From Eledone cirrhosa (Eukaryota): a stretch of 64,000 bases of DNA. Under the pieces are notes generated by a model that saw only the letters and a program-made list of their open reading frames with translations, had not been told where the DNA came from and searched no databases. Position 1 is the stretch's first letter, and every line of letters starts with the position of its first letter. The translations under genes and the position numbers were made by a program. The stretch covers positions 186,310,001-186,374,000 of the forward strand of contig OZ024742.1 in NCBI GenBank assembly GCA_964016885.1, in the 5' to 3' direction. Positions 3,001 through 62,822 of this stretch are shown here, in pieces.

Positions 3001-6000
3001 TAGTAGTGCTGGTGCCACAGTACAGCAGTAGTGTTGTTGCCACAGTACACTAGTAGTGTTGGTGCCACAGTACAGTAGTAGTGTTGGTTCCACGGTACAG
3101 TAGTAGAGCTGGTGTCACAGTTCAGTAGTAGTGCTGGCCCCACAGTACAGTAGTAGTGTTGGTGCCACAGTACAGTAGCAGTGCTGGTGTCACAGTACAG
3201 TAGTAGTGCTGGTGTCACAGTACAGTAGTAGTGCTGGTGTCACAGTACAGTAGTAGTTTTGGTGTCACGGTACAGTAGTAGTGTTGGTGCAACAGGACAG
3301 TACAGTAGTAGTGTTGTTGCCAGAGTACAGTAGTAGTGTTGGTCCCACAGTACAGTAGTGTTGGTGTCACAGTACAGTAGTAGTGCTGGTGCCACAGTAC
3401 AGTAGTAGAGCTGGTGTCACAGTACAGTAGTAGTGGTGGTGTCACAGTACAGTAGTAGTGTTGGTGCCACAGTACAGTAGTAGTGTTGGTGTCACAGTAA
3501 GTAGTAGTGTTGGTGTCACAGTACAGTAGTAGTGCTGGTGCCACAGTACAGTAGTAGTGCTGGTGCCACAGTACAGTAGTAGTGTTGGTGACACAGTACA
3601 GTAGTAGTGCTCGTGTCACAGTAGAGTAGTAGTGCTGGTGCCACAGTACAGTAGTAGTGCTGGTGTCACAGTACAGTAGTAGTGCTGGTGCCACAGTACA
3701 GTAGAACTGCTGGTGTCCCAGGACAGTAGTAGTGCTGGTGCCACAGTACAGTAGTAGTGCTGGTGCCACAGTACAGTAGTAGTGTTGGTGTCACAGTACA
3801 GTAGCAGTGCTGGTGCCACAGTACAGTAGCAGTGCTGGTGTCACAGTAGAGTAGTGCTGGTGTCACAGTAGAGTAGTGCTGGTGCCACAGTACAGTAGTA
3901 GTGCTGGTGTCACAGTAGAGTAGTGCTGGTGCCAAAGTACAGTAGTAGTGCTGGTTCCACAGTACAGTAGTAGTGTTGGTGTCACAGTACAGTAGTAGTG
4001 CCGGTGCCACAGTACAGTAGTAGTGTTGGTTCCACAGTACATTAGTAGTGCTGGTGCCACAGTACAGTAGTAGTGCTGGTGTCACAGTAAAGTAAGTAGT
4101 AGTGCTGGTGTCACAGTACAGTAGTAGTGCTGGTGACACAGTTAAGTAGCAGTGCTGGTGTCAAAGCACAGTAGTAGTGTTGGTGTCACAGTACAGTAGT
4201 AGTGTTGGTGTCACCGTACAGTAGTAGTGCTGCTGTCACAGTACAGTAGTAGTGCTGGTCTCACAGTACAGTAGTAGTGCTGATGTCACAGTACAGTAGT
4301 AGTGTTGGTGTCACAGTACAGTAGTAGTGCTGGTGCCACAGTACAGTAGCAGCGTTGGTGCCACAGTACAGTAGTAGTGCTGGTGCCACAGTACAGTAGT
4401 AGTGTTGGTTCCACAGTACAGTAGTAGTGCTGGTGCCACAGTACAGTAGTAGTGCTGGTGTCACATTACAGTAGTAGTGCTGGTGCCACAGTACAATAGT
4501 AGTGCTGGTTCCACAGTACAGTAGTAGTGCTGGTGCCACAGTACAGTAGTAGTGATGGTGTCACAGTACAGTAGTAGTGCAGGTGTCACAGTACAGTAGT
4601 AGTGCTGGTGTCACAGTACAGTAGTAGTGTTGGTGCCACAGTACAGTAGTAGTGTTGGTGTCACAGTACAGTAGTAGTGTTGGTGCCACAGTACAGTAGT
4701 AGTGCTGGTGTCACAGTACAGTAGTAGTGCTGGTGTCACAGTACAGTAGTAGTGCTGGTGCCACAGTACAGTAGCAGTGTTGGTGCCACAGTACAGTAGT
4801 AGTGCTGGTGTCACAGTACAGTAGTAGTGTTGGTGCCACAGTACAGTAGTAGTGCTGGTGCCACAGTACACTAGTAGTGTTGTTACCATAGTACAGTAGT
4901 AGTGCTGGTGTCACAGTACAGTAGTAGCGTTGTTACCATAGTACAGTAGTAGTGCTGGTGCAACAGTACAGTAGTAATGCTGGTGTCACAGTACAGTAGT
5001 AGTGCTGTTCCACAGTACAATAGTAGTGCTGGTGTCACAGTACAGTAGTAGTGCTGGTGCCACAGTACAGTAGCAGTGCTGGTGTCACAGTAGTGCTGGT
5101 GCCACAGTACAGTAGTAGTGCTGGTGCCACAGTACAGTAGTGCTGGTGCCACAGTACAGTAGTAGTGTTGGTGTCACTGTACAGTAGTAGTGTTGTTGCC
5201 ACAGTACAGAAGTAGTGTTGGTGCCACAGTACAGTAGTAGTGTTGGTGTCACAGTACAGTAGCAGTGTTGGTGCCACAGTACAGTAGTAGTGCTGGTGCC
5301 ACAGTACAGTAGTAGTGTTGGTTCCACAGTACAGTAGTAGTGCTGGTGCCACAGTACAGTAGTAGTGTTGGTGTCACATTACAGTAGTAGTGCTGGTGCC
5401 ACAGTTCAGTAGTAGTGCTCGTGCCACAGTACAGTAGTAGTGCTGGTGCCACAGTACAGTAGTAGTTATAGTGTCAAAGTACAGTAGTAGTGCAGGTGTC
5501 ACAGTACAGTAGTAGTGCAGGTGTCACAGTACAGTAGTAGTGCTGGTGTCACAGTATAGTAGTAGTGTTGGTGCCACAGTACAGTAGTAGTGTTGGTGTC
5601 ACAGTACAGTAGTAGTGCTGGTGCCACAGTACAGTAGCAGTGTTGGTGCCACAGTACAGTAGTAGTGTTGGTGCCACAGTACAGTAGTAGTGCTGGTGTC
5701 ACAGTACAGTAGTAGTGCTGGTCCCACAGTACAGTAGCAGTGCTGGTGTCACAGTAGAGTAGTGCTGGTGCCACAGTACAGTAGTAGTGTTGGTGTCACA
5801 GTAGAGTAGTGCTGGTTCCACAGTACAGTAGTAGTGCTGCTGCCACAGTACAGTAGTAGTGCTGGTGCCACAGTACAGCAGTAGTGTTGTTGCCACAGTA
5901 CACTAGTAGTGTTGGTGCCACAGTACAGTAGTAGTGTCGGTGCCACAGCACAGTAGTAGTGTTGGTTCCACGGTACAGTAGTAGAGCTGGTGTCACAGTT

Positions 6001-37381: not shown

Positions 37382-39580
37382 TTAGAGAGATGCGTTGATA
37401 GTCAAGGTTGGAATTAGGGGGGGGGGGGCAGCCGCTATTATATCCCATTTTAGGTGAAATTGTTGGTTATTTTCACGCAGCTGCCAAGCCTTGTCTGCGA
37501 GTGTTGTTACATAACGTTGGTTTTCATGTTTTATCGAGTAACGATGTCTATAAAGGCGTGATTTGAAGGAGGTGGCTGTAGATCCCACATAGTACCATTT
37601 CTGTCTATCCGATTCGATAGTACATTTGTATATGATGTTGCGTTCAAGACACTGATTGTCCAACGGACACATTCCTGGTTGGACACAGTTACAATTATAA
37701 TTTTGCGTTGTTGTATTGTCATGGATGGGTTGATGAGGTTGCTTAGGTAGGACAGGATGTTGTTTGTTGTTTTGTGATGTTATAGCTAATGTTTTACGTG
37801 TATTGTTATGTGTTGGAAGGCATTTATACAACCGTTTTGCGTTAAGCTTTTTTATATGTTGTTCAATATTAGGGGCGGTTGAATATGAGAGTCGAATAGT
37901 GTTAGGGTTTAAGATTTTATTATATTTATGTGATGTTGGAAAGTGTTTTTTAACTAATCGAAAGAATTGTGAGGGTAGATTAGTTTTAATAGAGTTGTTA
38001 TAGACCGGGTTGTACCAAATATACTCTTTACATCGCCTTCTGTTTGGTGGTGTGCGACAATTATTGTGTCTATTGCGGTAGTGTATGTATGGTGGTGATT
38101 CTGTGCTATTTCTACTCCTATGGGATTTATTTTGGGTGTTTTGGTGATCTTCGACTATATACTCTATATTATCTAGGTGTCCGGCTTTCCTAAGTGCATC
38201 ATCATAATATTCGGCATGTTCTTTGAAGGTTTGTTGGTTGGACGACAAGCGGGAGATTCTAAGAGAAACATTTCTAGGGATGGATTTAATTATAGAGAGT
38301 GGATGGTTAGAACTCGTATTTACATATTTAAGGTTCTCATTTAGTTTATGGAACGGTTTAATCGTATCTGTATTGAGATTCAAAGTAACATCAAGGAAAT
38401 TGACCTCTTTGAGGTTATATTCAAATGTAATATTTAATCCTAGTTCCTTAAAAAGCTTTCTGATATTTTTACGCATCCTTTCTAAATTCTGGTTATTCAT
38501 ATGCTTAACTAATAGGAGCGCATCATCACGGTAGATTCCACCGTGGAGATCCTTGAATTTTCCTTGTAGTCTGTGGGTGATATAAATTCCCACAAGATCT
38601 GTTACTTCCGCCGAATCATTAGAACCCATAGTAATATCAAAATTAGAAGGTCTATCTTTGCGAACCCAGTAGCTATCATCGAATTTAACTATAGTTTTCC
38701 TCGCTTCCATAATAATTTTAATTTCAGCATCCGTAAGGTCGGAATTAGCCTTAGCGAACGAAAGAGCTTCATGTAGAGTATCAGGTGAAATTGAGGAATA
38801 ATATTCATCAATATCAAACTGAATAAATTTTGAATTTTTCTTATCAGTAATGTTATTAAACCATCTTATTGCTTCATGAGTGTTACCCCATAGTTTAATT
38901 TCTACTTTAACCTTAACTTCGGGGATAATTCTGTCTAGTATATATTTGCTAATTTTGCCTATATCAGATTTAGAGGGGCATATAAGTCTAATCTTAGGGT
39001 TAGTATCGAAGTTTACCTTGTGGTCCTTCAGGTTGAAGGATGGTATAGCTGGTGTTAAGGGTTGCGTTCTATCGTCAATACAAAGTTCTTTAACAATTTC
39101 ACATGCCGAGTTGTTGATGTTTTTAAGTGTAGCTTCATTAGTTTTCTTGTATTTTTTATGTAATTCCTTACGGATGAAGTTATTGTAAGTGTCCACATCC
39201 ATGGTATATACGTTTGATGTTTTGTCTGCTCTAACAATAATTCCATTGGCGTTTTTTAGATTATTGAGCAGTGCCGTGATGTCATTCTGTAGTTTATTGT
39301 TCTTCCGTTTTGTAAATTTGATCTCCATGATCATATCCATTAGGTCTTGTTCAAATGCATCCAAAAGTGGGTTTGAGGGTGGGTTTTTGTAAGATTTAAA
39401 TCCAAATTTATCCTTGTTAAGATCCGATGTTTGGTTTATACGGCTTTTGTCAAAATGGAATGTTTTCCATCTGATTCGTCGAATAAAATCATTGGTCCTT
39501 CGTATCATACCTAGAATATATTCCTTTTTTGCCTGAATAGGTATGTTTTTGAACGACATATCCAATTGGTGCTTTTCCAT
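37382..39580 (-). CDS. Penelope-like (Naiad-type) reverse transcriptase + GIY-YIG endonuclease, 732 aa; C-terminus appears truncated
   Basis: RT motifs [50 protein letters not shown] region CNC..CPL..CL, IIYKC...YYVGST..FKSR. The final CxxC seen in the sister copy (CRLC at ~44310) is absent. Confidence 0.93.
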   Translation of the reverse strand: MEKHQLDMSFKNIPIQAKKEYILGMIRRTNDFIRRIRWKTFHFDKSRINQTSDLNKDKFGFKSYKNPPSNPLLDAFEQDLMDMIMEIKFTKRKNNKLQNDITALLNNLKNANGIIVRADKTSNVYTMDVDTYNNFIRKELHKKYKKTNEATLKNINNSACEIVKELCIDDRTQPLTPAIPSFNLKDHKVNFDTNPKIRLICPSKSDIGKISKYILDRIIPEVKVKVEIKLWGNTHEAIRWFNNITDKKNSKFIQFDIDEYYSSISPDTLHEALSFAKANSDLTDAEIKIIMEARKTIVKFDDSYWVRKDRPSNFDITMGSNDSAEVTDLVGIYITHRLQGKFKDLHGGIYRDDALLLVKHMNNQNLERMRKNIRKLFKELGLNITFEYNLKEVNFLDVTLNLNTDTIKPFHKLNENLKYVNTSSNHPLSIIKSIPRNVSLRISRLSSNQQTFKEHAEYYDDALRKAGHLDNIEYIVEDHQNTQNKSHRSRNSTESPPYIHYRNRHNNCRTPPNRRRCKEYIWYNPVYNNSIKTNLPSQFFRLVKKHFPTSHKYNKILNPNTIRLSYSTAPNIEQHIKKLNAKRLYKCLPTHNNTRKTLAITSQNNKQHPVLPKQPHQPIHDNTTTQNYNCNCVQPGMCPLDNQCLERNIIYKCTIESDRQKWYYVGSTATSFKSRLYRHRYSIKHENQRYVTTLADKAWQLRENNQQFHLKWDIIAAAPPPLIPTLTINASL

Positions 39581-39903
39581 TTTAGAGGCGTATGCTGAAT
39601 TAGTTGCTCAACTGTATAGGAGATTATTAAAATTTCAGGTTATCAATAATGTAGTGATAATATATCGTTACGTTAGAGATGAACAGCGTACGTGTAGGTT
39701 TGCTCAACGAGTATAAATTATATTCCGGAGAAAATGTAGAAAAGATGAATATAAAATGAAAGTGCTTTTTTTAAAAAGGAATTTATTAGGTATTGACATA
39801 TGTTTCTGTAACAGACGGAATACCTATGTATCGCTGCTTGCGTAATCATATAATGTTAGCAAGTATTCGATAGCAAATGTATAATCAGTTGTCACTTCTT
39901 CAC

Positions 39904-42629: not shown

Positions 42630-44414
42630 TCAGTTGAAAGATCATAAATGCGACTTCGAAACTGACCCTACTATTAGATTAATATGCCCATCAAAGTCGG
42701 ATATAGGTAGAATTAGCAAGTATATACTAGATAGAATAATACCACACATTAAAGACAAACTAATAATTAAGCTAATGAAGCAATAGATTGGTTTAGCAAA
42801 TTAGACAATAGGGAAACTTCTGACTTCATACAATTTGACATCAATGACTACTACTCCTGTATTTCCCCAACTACCCTAAATAAAGCACTAACCTTTGCAC
42901 AAAAAACTCGGACCTATCATCCGATGAAATTAAAATAATACTAGCTGCTAGAAGAACAATCATTACGTTCGATAATAGTTACTGGGAAAGAAAAAATAGA
43001 CAATATAACTTTGATATCACTATGGGATCTAACGATTCAGCTCAAATAACGGACATGGTCGGAATTTATATAGCACTTATCTTACATAAGGAATTTGGTA
43101 GCCTCCAGGGAGGAATTTATAGAGACGATACATTACTTTTAGCTAAAAACTTAAATAATCAAAACTTGGAAACATTACGTAAAAAGATTAGGCCTAAACA
43201 TCACTTTCGAACTCAACTCTAAAAAAGCTAACTTCTTAGATGTATCACTCAACCTAAACACAGGACTAATAGAGCCCTTCCATAAAAATAACGAAAATCT
43301 AGCTTACATTAGGAATAACTCAAACCACCCTCGCTCCATAATTAACTCCATAGCACATAGTATATCCCTTAGAATTTCACGCTTATCTTGTAACCTAAAT
43401 ATTTTTAATGAACACGTTAACTACTACAACATAGCTTTACTTAAGACAGGCCACGAAGAGAGGCTCAAATACATACCAGATACAAACAACAACACACTTT
43501 ACAGCAATAACACCACCCACACCTATAGAAATAACAAATATAGGACTAAACATAGAAATAGGCAACGAGCACCAGAAATAATTGAATACTAATATAAGGA
43601 CCCCTAGGAACTATAGAAGATCCAGAGATAGAAAATACTTATGGTTCAATCCAATATTTAACTCCTCTTTAAAAACCAAACTACCTTCTATATTCTTTAA
43701 ATTAATTGACTAGCACTTCCCTAAACTTCACAAATACCATAACATTTTAATAGAAATACTATCAAACTATCTTACTCTACTGCAACCAACATAGAATCAC
43801 ACATACAGAAAATTAACTATAAAAGAATCTCTAATACAAATAACCTCCAAACAAGCACCATGACACCAAATACAAAACACATACACATAACAACATCACA
43901 ACCACACACACTTCAGAACACATCACAACAATACATCAACAAACCCAAATCTCAGCCTATACAAAACAACATACAAAACCGCATCGCTGAACCGGCACAT
44001 AGGAAGGCCTCGAAATGTAACTGTTACTTACCGGATAAGTGCAAACTACAAAATAGATGCATTGAATCTAATACAGTGTACCTATGTACTATAAATTCAG
44101 GCAACTTAGCATGGCACTACATAGGTTCTACGGCGGGGGTGTTAAAAAAACGTTGGTACGTCCACAGACATTCTATAAAAAACCGTAAACTAATGAATAC
44201 AACAACGCTCGCCAATAAAATCTGGCAGCTCAAAGATAAAAACCAAGAATACAGGATTAACTGGTCTAAATTGTCAGGGGCAATGGTCTACAAAATTGGT
44301 ATGTTCCACTGTAGACTTTGTAATATGGAATTATTCCATATTTTAAAATATGACAAAATGCTGCTTAACAGCAAAATTGAACGGTCAATTTTCTGTAGAC
44401 AAAGCATCAAATAA
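42630..44414 (+). pseudogene. Naiad-type Penelope RT + GIY-YIG pseudogene, 5' truncated
   Basis: [62 protein letters not shown]. Has frameshifts and stops. Clearly related to 37382-39580. Confidence 0.92.
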
Positions 44415-45053: not shown

Positions 45054-45122
45054 CTGACAGAAAGGTATACGATGCTGACGATAGCTAATAAGCTTGAAAC
45101 TAGTACATCGTTCCTGTGTCAG
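45054..45122 (+). ncRNA. Type I hammerhead ribozyme in the 3' end of the second Naiad element
   Basis: ACGATG-CTGACGA-T-AGCT(aata)AGCT-T-GAAAC-TA-GTA-CATCGT. Stem III is the palindrome ACTAGT and stem I extends via CTGACA/TGTCAG. Confidence 0.8.
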
Positions 45123-47133: not shown

Positions 47134-47210
47134 TTGACGTACATGGGAGTCGAACCCACATCTTTGGTTATGCAGATCACTGTGCTACCATTTACACCAA
47201 CACATCACCC
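47134..47210 (-). pseudogene. tRNA-like sequence (tRNA pseudogene or SINE head)
   Basis: TGGTGTAAATGGTAGCAC D arm and GTGGGTTCGACTCCCAT T arm. Acceptor and anticodon stems are imperfect. A deleted inverted copy lies at 47633-47690. Confidence 0.6.
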
Positions 47211-58054: not shown

Positions 58055-58090
58055 TCTTCTGATGAAGGACTAGCGTCCGAAACGTTAAGA
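58055..58090 (+). ncRNA. Minimal (dimer-type) type I hammerhead ribozyme
   Basis: TCTT-CTGATGA-A-GGAC(tagc)GTCC-GAAAC-GTT-AAGA. Stem III is the loopless palindrome AACGTT. Confidence 0.85.
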
Positions 58091-58334: not shown

Positions 58335-58601
58335 ATATGATAATACAAGGACGATTTGTTGTGCCTTCATTACGTTTATTCATTGGTGACGCGCATTTCG
58401 CTATTGATCATCTCAAGGTTTGTTCTCAAGGTTGATTCTGGAATCAAAAGCTTGTCAGACCCCAGCAGAGATCCGACGAGCTTTTGATTCCAGAGCCGGG
58501 CCAGATCGATACAAATCGAACCTTGAGCTGATCAATAGTGAAACGCTCGTCACAAATCAATAAACGCAATGAAGACATAACAATTCGTCCTTTTATTATA
58601 T
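58335..58601. repeat. Diverged fold-back element with a degenerate hammerhead in each arm
   Basis: Minus 58385-58461: GGT-CTGACAA-GCTTTTGAT..ATCAATAGC-GAAAT-GCGC-GTC-ACC. Plus 58470-58554: CCGACGA-GCTTTTGAT..ATCAATAGT-GAAAC-GCTC-GTC. Confidence 0.8.
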
Positions 58602-58704
58602 AATCCCGCCGAGGTTAACTTTGCCTTTCATCCTTACGGGGTCGATAAAATAAAGTACCAGTAATGCACTGGGTAATTGCTGGCCTTGTGCCAAATGTAG
58701 AACC

Positions 58705-58710
<6 letters not shown>
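58602..58710 (+). mobile_element. tRNA-derived SINE (family B), 5' truncated
   Basis: Starts within the B box; core and tail are intact. Confidence 0.85.
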
Positions 58711-58750
<40 letters not shown>

Positions 58751-58780
58751 AGATCAAAAGATGGTTAAATGAGTTCCATG

Positions 58781-58851
58781 TATTTTATTATGCGCATTTC
58801 AAAAACAAATATCATCATGCAATAACATTTGTGTTTTCATCAGATAAAATA
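58781..58851 (-). ncRNA. Type I hammerhead ribozyme, mirror copy
   Basis: Exact reverse complement of 58936-59006. Confidence 0.85.
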
Positions 58852-58935
58852 GGAGGACATGATATGAAGGTTAAATATGTTGATTTAAAACTGAACTATC
58901 CACAAGTGTTTTTTAACCTTCATATCATGTCCTCC

Positions 58936-59006
58936 TATTTTATCTGATGAAAACACAAATGTTATTGCATGATGATATTTGTTTTTGAAATGCGCATAAT
59001 AAAATA
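58936..59006 (+). ncRNA. Type I hammerhead ribozyme, intact core
   Basis: TATTTTAT-CTGATGA-(~15-bp stem II)-GAAAT-GCGC-ATA-ATAAAATA. 8-bp stem I and palindromic stem III ATGCGCAT. Confidence 0.85.
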
Positions 59007-59129
59007 CATGGAACTCATTTAACCATCTTTTGATCTTATATATTATGTATACTCCAGTCCTACAAACTGTAGAGTGCTTCTTATCCGATATCTGCATTGC
59101 TTTATTGTACTACAATAAAACTCACCTCC

Positions 59130-59218
<89 letters not shown>

Positions 59219-60640: not shown

Positions 60641-60673
60641 GTCAATTTGCGGAGAGCGGAATGTCGATTAAAT

Positions 60674-61884
60674 CTACCCCAGTACGTTACTGGTACTTTA
60701 TTTTATCGACCCGTTAAGGATGAAAGGAAAAGCTTAACCTCGGAGGATTTGAACTCAGAACGCAAAGGGACGTAACTATATGCCACAGAGCATTTTACCC
60801 AACGCGCTAATGATTCTGCCAACCCACCGCCCTAACCAACCTTAATTATAATAATGATTTCTAGTATAAGCATAAGGCCAGTAAATCGACCGCAGTACGT
60901 TACTGGTGCTTTATTTTATCAACCCCGTAAGGATGAAAGGCAAAGTTAACCTCGGTGGGATTTGAACTCAGACCGTAAAGGGACGTAACTCTGTGCTGTA
61001 AAACATGGCGTCCGACTCTCTACCGATACTGCCAATCCACCTTCTGAAATGTCAACACTTCCGGTTGGCCATGGCTTAAATAAACATACTAATTTTCTGT
61101 CACTAATTTTCTCCTAATGCAGTTAATATATAATTGTTTCTACTTTAGGCACAAGACCAGCAATTACCCAGTACATTACTGGTACTTTATTTTATCGACC
61201 CCGTAAGGATGAAAGGCAAAGTTAACCTTGGCGGGATTTGAACTATTGCAGTTAATATATAATATCGTCTTTTTTAATGTATCATGGATTACGTTACTGA
61301 TTAAATAAGACAGTGTAACGCAGTCTTCGTTCAATTTCTATGTATTATATATTGTCAATTACGATTTTATTTAATGTATCATATCTACATGTATATATAC
61401 TTGCGTATAATATCAATATACACACTACACATGCTAGCAGAAAACCACCCGAAGGGTTGTTTTTCTGCTAGTAATAATAATGATTTCTACTATAGGCACA
61501 AGGCCAGCAATTCGGGGGTGGGGGGTGGGGGGTGATAGTTGATTATATCTAAACCAGTGTATTACTGGTACTTTATTTTATCGATCTCGTAAAGATGAAA
61601 GGCAAAGCGAGATTTGAACTCAGAATGTAAAAGCACGTAACTCTATGCCTCAAAGCATGGCGTCCGACCCTCTACCGATACTGCCAATCCACAACAATAA
61701 TAATTGTTTCTACTTTTGGCACAAGGCCAGCAATTATCCCAGTGCATTACTGGTACTTTATTTTATCGACCCCGTAAGGATGAAAGGCAAAGTTAACCTC
61801 GGCGGGATTTGAACTCAGAATGGCAAGGGACGTAACTATGCTGGAAAGCATGGCGTCCGACCCTCTACCGATACTGACAATCCA
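60674..61884 (-). mobile_element. Cluster of five co-oriented family-B SINEs (~60674-60832, 60850-61042, 61128-61243, 61472-61692, 61696-61884)
   Basis: Each copy has ACTGGTRCTTTATTTTATC...GATGAAAGG...ATTTGAACT. Confidence 0.88.
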
Positions 61885-62822
61885 AACAATAATAATAATG
61901 TGTTTGAACATAGGTTATGCCTTACAAAATCTGGGAGAGGGGTGTCTTGTCGATATAATCAATCCCAATTCTTGACCGGTATCTTACTTGTTTTTGTGAA
62001 ATCCGTAACTAAATACATTACATCGATAACATTACTCTTCCAATATCTCCAGTTTAGCTTTATCACAGAAGTAAACCATATTGGAATTTCAGTTTTCAAT
62101 ATATTTATTCTTCATTTTCTTTCAGAAGGTAAAACACTTTCACCACTAGAAAACGTTTGTTAAGTAGTATACAGAGAGTTGTTTCTGATCCATATGTAAA
62201 ATCTCACTTTCTTTTTCCAATTCATCACCAAAGAATTATGTCGTCCATGAAACATACCAAATGCCACTAAGATACAAATGATTTATATATTATTATCTTT
62301 AACTTCCCCAAGAATGAACACATTTACAACTTGGTAAATCTCATTTTCCACTTCTCAAGTAATCCAACAACTACGTAGTTTATGTAATTATCGTGCCAAT
62401 AATCAGATTTGAAAATCCTATCTTCCACTCAAGATAAACTTTGTTTCCCCGAGAAAATTCTCTTCACACACAATCTCTTTTTCACCCGCTCATATAGTAA
62501 TACACAGAATAGGGTGGCAGTTTCTCTTGTTGTCGTCGTTGTTGTTGTAGTCACCGTTACTTATAATAGAATTATACATAGATTCCAATGGAAATAGCAA
62601 TTTGTTATTACTACTACTACCAGGTTTTCACCATGTTTAGAAACGACAGAACTGATTTACAATAAATATATTTTAGAATCTTTACTTAGAATTAGACTTA
62701 TCATTTTACGTTCGTTTTCTCGTGCTTTTTACCGGATGGAATGAAGTCAGCAGCTTATTTCGGTTTTAAGGGTGTAAGTAAAGACTTCTTTTCTGGATGG
62801 GACGCCAGTCTGGAACAGAGTC

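Follow-up and report, generated by a model that had tools for sequence, protein, structure and literature searches.

A perfect fold-back of 306 bp with a hammerhead ribozyme motif on each strand raises the question of whether it represents a minimal, recent insertion mobilized by a Penelope-like element (PLE) or a distinct, nonautonomous ribozyme element, both of which had been put forward in the original prediction. The fold-back is located in a 64,000-nucleotide stretch of the Eledone cirrhosa genome, here termed the window, and positions within its arms are numbered such that q1 corresponds to 58876, the first base of the right-hand pLTR copy, and q0 to 58875.

Anatomy of the fold-back insertion

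Sequence comparison and pattern scanning confirmed that two 135-bp arms of perfect complementarity, each harboring a type I hammerhead, flank a 36-nt spacer (Table 1). Comparison of 30 genomic loci established that this spacer is not a separate loop but native pLTR sequence, with which the right-hand copy begins, and that many copies extend into an 86-nt tail. Of the bounds originally assigned to the element (58741 to 59046), the left edge was retained and the right edge was not, as the insertion runs to 59132 by virtue of an 86-nt tail on the right arm. The reported contact with a (TA)n tract was similarly borne out, with the correction that both ends of the insertion sit in (TA)n, a second tract being located beyond the tail; any target-site duplication is unreadable within (TA)n. 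The flanks of the inverted repeat lack mirror symmetry and the tail is present on a single arm, which excludes a fold-back assembly artefact. As a single locus, the window insertion is ordinary PLE debris, and it was likely dead on arrival. Two further repeats occur nearby, namely, a SINE-like repeat family at 58602 to 58714 (−) and 60669 to 61888 (+), one inverted copy of which adjoins the left (TA)n tract, and a MITE-like inverted repeat of 81 nt (58340 to 58420 and 58519 to 58599), whose arms are 86% complementary and 98 nt apart.

Table 1. Features of the fold-back insertion in window coordinates
Feature	Position	Strand
Left (TA)n tract, part of the insertion target	58708..58740	
Tail-less arm, inverted pLTR q37-171	58741..58875	-
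Type I hammerhead motif, minus copy, mirror of the plus copy; predicted cut between 58789 and 58788	58781..58851	-
q0 adenine, common to both arms (1-nt microhomology); family-wide stop, inferred transcription start	58875	+
36-nt "spacer," right-arm pLTR q1-36	58876..58911	+
Right arm, pLTR q37-171	58912..59046	+
Type I hammerhead motif, plus copy; predicted cut after 58998 (q123)	58936..59006	+
86-nt tail, q172-257; full-length copies run on into the 5' leader and ORF	59047..59132	+
Right (TA)n tract, part of the insertion target	59133..59218	

The parent element and its assignment to the Hydra clade

Longer loci (L031, L032, and L041) carry an open reading frame (ORF) upstream of the same end repeat, and the window arm differs from these coding copies at 1 to 2 positions over q0 to q165, a finding which supports a minimal and recent PLE insertion. 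Locus L075 represents a full tandem copy, comprising the pLTR, tail, leader, an ATG at q343, an ORF of 798 amino acids (aa), the 3' UTR, and the next q0 at 3,710 (PLE unit length, 3,710 bp), and a pattern search found the tail reading on into the leader at 210 genomic places. In the 3' UTR of L076 (2823 to 3440), a short unit is tandemly expanded, the number of units differing between copies.

The 798-aa ORF specifies YRDD, indicative of a reverse transcriptase (RT), at residue 355, followed by a C-terminal IYE..YFG at 676 to 692, and harbors DKT in place of DKG at 122 and a CxCX5C linker (CNCPVKNKC) at 656. The endonuclease core contains one Cys and no CCHH, with CNLCLNEK at 756 and N..CLH at 775. 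Because sequence searches of Pfam and the PDB with this ORF returned no match, the assignment of a GIY-YIG-type endonuclease rests on these motifs and on ESM look-alikes, some members of which carry GIY-YIG, RVT_1, and HTH_animal. On the basis of the same motifs and look-alikes, we propose that the L075-type element belongs to a new family of the Hydra clade, whose motif definition it matches (PMC8557442, section 11). Features in common with the clade, as set out in that paper (Craig et al. 2021, PMC8557442), are a C-terminal GIY-YIG, DKT, CxCX5C, CxxC and CxH around E and N, the absence of CCHH, (TA)n targets, and a hammerhead in the 3' end, and the clade member Penelope-13_HM is likewise listed as possessing a 5'-truncated inverted copy with a hammerhead on each strand. 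In the present family, a (TA)n tract adjoins all 38 tailed ends and 32 of the 38 tail-less ends. The family differs from the same published account in its unit length (3,710 bp versus generally <3 kb), its tail (86 nt versus 30 to 40 bp), and the presence of RWI at the position of RWK. Hydra-1_Obim from Octopus bimaculoides is included among the Hydra clade members in File S1 of PMC8557442, and the hammerhead described here is AU-rich, has a 15-bp stem II, and differs in sequence from the motif listed for it.

A Neptune/Nematis PLE, our first guess, was dropped, as the ORF has neither a CX2-5CxxC linker nor CCHH, and a Naiad PLE was ruled out by the C-terminal endonuclease motifs and the presence of hammerheads. 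Other PLEs were encountered alongside the family. An open 741-aa frame at 37385 to 39607 (−) of the window represents a second Hydra-type family; its product shares 42% identity with the L075 protein and contains RWK, DKT, and CxCX5C. At 42631 to 44282 (+) lies a fragmented third Hydra-like ORF with a downstream hammerhead-like motif at 45075 (stem III palindrome ACTAGT), which recurs in L024, L053, L100, and L117. A broken PLE ORF, of Neptune type judging by its CX2-5CxxC linker and the two Cys of its endonuclease core, adjoins a copy of the L075-type family in L035 (5241 to 7054, −).

Family size and insertion architecture

A search of the 3.0-Gb genome with the spacer and arm yielded 771 candidates, 40 of which were scored, with near-identical full-length matches among them, and a 28-mer of the tail had 11,047 exact genomic matches. 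Chance is excluded by the reversed-pattern controls, with which none of the eight pattern searches returned a match. As loci L001 to L044, L075 to L115, and L116 to L145 were picked by similarity or pattern, proportions derived from them are biased. Loci L045 to L074 are the first 30 tail matches on contig C1, unselected for their 5' ends; 27 of these 30 terminate in (TA)n, whereas the other 3 continue into the ORF. Ten are short fold-backs of two arms, of which 9 have at least one arm at q0 and 6 have both there, corresponding to 6 of 27 tail ends.

Among 85 distinct two-ended insertions (element cover of at least 85%; three low-coverage rows dropped), 79 consist of one tailed and one tail-less arm placed head to head, 1 has two tails, and 5 have other ends. 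The sole insertion with tails on both arms is L084 (1117 to 3414). The 3' ends of the arms are fixed, at about q171 to q176 when tail-less and at q257 when tailed, and the same two sites mark the transition to (TA)n at loose ends in public-run contigs, which originate from one study and probably the same sample and give no starts, strand, or copy number. A loose end at 5772 in these contigs was considered as a joint and rejected, since it reflects divergence of L075. Within the 79 insertions, the longer arm can be either the tailed or the tail-less one; by hand tally, the tail-less arm outreaches its tailed partner in the 5' direction by 5 nt or more in 29, the arms do not overlap in 7, and they are clearly nested in 8.

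A fixed 5' stop at q0

Over half of the arms that reach q0 stop there: a nonnative base precedes q0 in 4,746 arms, a lower bound in that the commonest overlap junction escapes this pattern, and 4,493 arms read through. Fold-backs in which both arms end at q0, within 14 nt of each other, account for 1,756 junctions, or approximately 16% of tail matches. Arms also end at q0 where the other arm ends elsewhere, as in the window copy, L046, L049, and L068. The palindrome CATATG is native at q−1 to q4, and 21 of the 50 listed junctions with both arms at q0 are 4-nt overlaps centred on it; deletion between two such palindromes may account for part of these.

A further property of the stop is the base that precedes it. 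Among the matches listed (of 4,746), G was found before q0 in 44 of 100, versus 12 of 49 at control position q133 (P = 0.03, hand tally), a comparison that is not like for like (3 mismatches versus 1). Among the 50 listed junctions, 9 contain at least two extra bases, with G at 10 of their 18 arm ends (P = 0.0009, hand tally), and 9 have single-base spacers, every one of which is C or G. The G excess is modest and may be inflated by microhomology with GATA sites of the partner. In L1, an untemplated G is the accepted mark of cap copying (PMC9341517); the extra G at q0 is suggestive of a capped sense template. The promoter of Drosophila Penelope has been located in the pLTR (PMC2377424). From the arm sequences, we infer that q0 is the transcription start. 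Its context, TTCA|T, resembles the initiator consensus. The fixed stop, the G excess, and the nonnested arms were not found in the openly accessible literature searched.

The hammerhead motifs and the ribozyme cut site

The hammerhead of each arm comprises an 8-bp stem I, a bulged stem II of 15 bp, and an AUA triplet, with CUGAUGA at 58944, GAAA at 58987, and the palindromic stem III AUGCGCAU in the plus-strand copy. Scanning of the whole window under strict settings identified these two hammerheads only, and an Rfam search gave no hammerhead match to either motif, returning weak snoRNA matches only. The core is complete in the window copy and intact in 133 of 144 arms; a single core change, at free position 7, exceeds 4% among the arms, and all six shared stem variants preserve pairing (rough P = 0.03). 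Two-sided covariation in the stems was not seen among the arms. Judged by these sequences, source copies seem to have preserved the fold. A further minimal type I hammerhead at 58055 to 58090 (+) of the window, with a 4-bp stem I and a palindromic ACGT, precedes a (CA)n tract by approximately 85 nt and probably marks the terminus of another PLE.

The active fold is predicted at −5.8 kcal/mol for a monomer (minimum free energy [MFE], −10.0 kcal/mol) and at −31.5 kcal/mol for a dimer (MFE, −32.1 kcal/mol), and folding thus predicts that dimerization via the palindromic stem III is needed, in line with the dimer action reported for metazoan pLTR hammerheads (PMC4209133). Transcripts of the fold-back had been envisaged as self-cleaving or as folding into a long double-stranded rod. 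The rod is upheld by modeling, with read-through RNA folding at a predicted −213.8 kcal/mol, and self-cleavage is judged unlikely because each strand offers one sense ribozyme, which would be buried in the hairpin, and a dimer is predicted to be necessary.

The cut site is not a truncation hot spot, a candidate which was rejected on the basis of 57 arm ends at q124, 18 of which look like 3-nt deletion variants, versus 49 at control position q133 and approximately 1,400 at q0 (like for like, estimated from 9 of 30 loci); the count at the cut site could miss ends masked by microhomology with (TA)n. The template RNA was probably uncut by its ribozyme when it was copied, in which case the hammerheads would be copied passengers. 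An active role for the motifs may be imagined, whereby fold-backs anchored at q0 keep the internal promoter and fire outwards, and the resulting short capped hammerhead RNAs pair via stem III with full-length mRNA and cut it in trans. This appears improbable; if true, the retrotransposon's own strong-stop debris would act as a copy-number brake.

Origin of the head-to-head arms

The fixed stop with its G excess, the nonnested arms, and the lack of a stop at the ribozyme cut favor twin priming on uncleaved, capped sense RNA. The window hairpin, in which the end repeat of a Hydra-type PLE entered (TA)n head to head with both arms short, probably arose in this manner. Transcription would start at q0, following which the RT-endonuclease, probably as a dimer, would cut (TA)n, both ends of one DNA break acting as primers on the same sense RNA, and would prime cDNAs inside the RNA, at about q171 to q176 and at q257. 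With start sites in the cap-proximal pLTR, the cDNAs would run off at q0 after about 170 to 260 nt, often copying the cap and so acquiring an extra base, and microhomology would join the two cDNA ends. In the window copy, the tailed cDNA would have reached q0 and the other would have stopped, or been trimmed, at q37. Arms that overlap fully would need two RNAs or strand displacement.

A precedent is provided by Anolis Poseidon (PAc; Frangieh et al. 2024, PMC11167929), which in vitro cuts and extends both strands from two internal start sites bounding the tail, has no need of the ribozyme cut, and is modeled as a dimer. It is this precedent, coupled with the nonnested arms, that leads to twin priming on capped sense RNA as the proposed mechanism, which agrees with the only in vitro system, one derived from another clade. 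An AT-rich target and, as proposed here, an uncleaved template are likewise shared. In the published description of PAc (PMC11167929), the ribozyme and tail overlap the ORF, whereas here they are located in the leader, upstream of the ATG at q343.

Self-priming, in which the second arm is synthesized on a single cDNA (or an antisense template) that has folded on itself at the CATATG palindrome, is the reading favored, on an antisense template, by Arkhipova 2013 and put forward for rotifer PLEs (PMC3846280). It accommodates the native palindrome and the 21 listed junctions centred there, as well as the window geometry, in which the short arm is nested in the tailed arm. We nevertheless regard it as unlikely, because 29 of the 79 tail-less arms are not contained in their tailed partner and 7 show no overlap with it, versus 8 clearly nested pairs, an outcome that two primers can yield and a single self-primed cDNA cannot; the capped sense template suggested by the extra G also speaks against it. 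A later deletion, by which long inverted insertions such as L031, L032, and L041 lost their middle between the two CATATG sites, would have the commonest junction as its expected product, yet 29 of the 50 listed junctions, many with extra bases, differ from that clean product, and the q0 stop persists where the partner ends elsewhere (the window, L046, L049, and L068), which renders this explanation improbable.

The distinct nonautonomous ribozyme element that was initially entertained would be a self-propagating unit, retrozyme- or SINE-like, with fold-backs or tailed arms as templates. The very high copy number, the stereotyped form with both arms at q0, the presence of both start sites in tailed arms, and the derivation of retrozymes from pLTRs (10.64898/2026.07.22.740005) would be in keeping with it. 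Against it, the exact junction of the window occurs at just two genomic places, the other being L147, where the tail is on the opposite arm and the subfamily variants differ; as the junction arose twice, independently, the 306-bp unit does not constitute a family of elements. Across 38 fold-backs, the two arms share their subfamily, being identical at 17 diagnostic sites in 30 and differing in 8, with a median of 1 haplotype difference between arms within a fold-back versus 7 between fold-backs, a match which could reflect later gene conversion between arms. In the same 38, allele counts were nearly equal in tailed and tail-less arms and separate lineages of the two were not seen, and all 10 haplotypes represented by at least three arms are found among long arms as well as among those stopped at q0, none being confined to short copies. 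Moreover, junctions are variable, copies are inverted rather than tandem, and the Anolis template needs sequence past the start site (PMC11167929), which is absent from short copies. Such an element is thus unsupported and very doubtful. An independent fold-back or MITE-like family was rejected owing to the variable junctions and the lack of arm-specific variants, and a non-LTR retrozyme because short copies are inverted pairs, the direct pairs examined (L075 and L080) flanking an ORF. Neither solitary arms nor a one-off product accounts for the copies; rather, thousands of fold-backs have been made anew. Perfect palindromes can arise during library preparation, which would be the route to an assembly or chance artefact; given the unmirrored flanks, the one-sided tail, the 1,756 similar junctions, and the loose ends at the same two 3' sites in public-run contigs (one study, probably the same sample), the probability of this is negligible.

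Relation to known systems

An inverted pLTR with a one-sided tail is standard for PLEs (PMC8557442 and PMC3846280), and the insertion units of EN+ PLEs (PMC8557442, Fig. 2 legend; PMC3846280) share the head-to-head, 5'-truncated copy, the single tail, and the palindromic junctions. The present insertions differ in that both arms are often minimal and end at one fixed base, in at least 1,756 copies, and neither a fixed stop nor an extra G is described for such units in the pertinent parts of PMC8557442 and PMC3846280. The insertion type is thus already known; the copies of the present family probably preserve two reverse transcriptions that ran up to the start of one capped RNA. L1 twin priming likewise produces an inverted 5' part that is joined by microhomology, but in the present family both cDNAs begin at fixed positions, complete overlap of the arms is frequent, and nearly all two-ended insertions are so built. 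For L1, two primers are reportedly placed on one RNA, giving an inverted 5' part and a microhomology join (the model attributed to Ostertag and Kazazian, 2001). With non-LTR retrozymes and pLTR hammerheads, the motifs share the type I fold, the short palindromic stem III, and the predicted dimer, whereas retrozymes are described as direct repeats in tandem from which a unit can be released and the present copies are inverted, with one sense ribozyme per strand (PMC4209133; 10.64898/2026.07.22.740005). Dual hammerheads on opposite strands, 100 to 700 bp apart, were noted in Schistosoma in 2014 (PMC4209133).

These data touch upon an open question in PLE biology, namely, the origin of inverted ends and one-sided tails and the use of a sense versus an antisense template (raised in PMC3846280 and PMC8557442), and the family yields exact, testable coordinates for the insertion mechanism. 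It may further be speculated that thousands of near-perfect hairpins could feed double-stranded RNA editing or small-RNA pathways. Elsewhere in the window, a 25-bp satellite of approximately 850 copies with strong GC skew occupies positions 1 to 21147, and a tRNA-like match of 40 bits was recorded at 47135 to 47206 (−).
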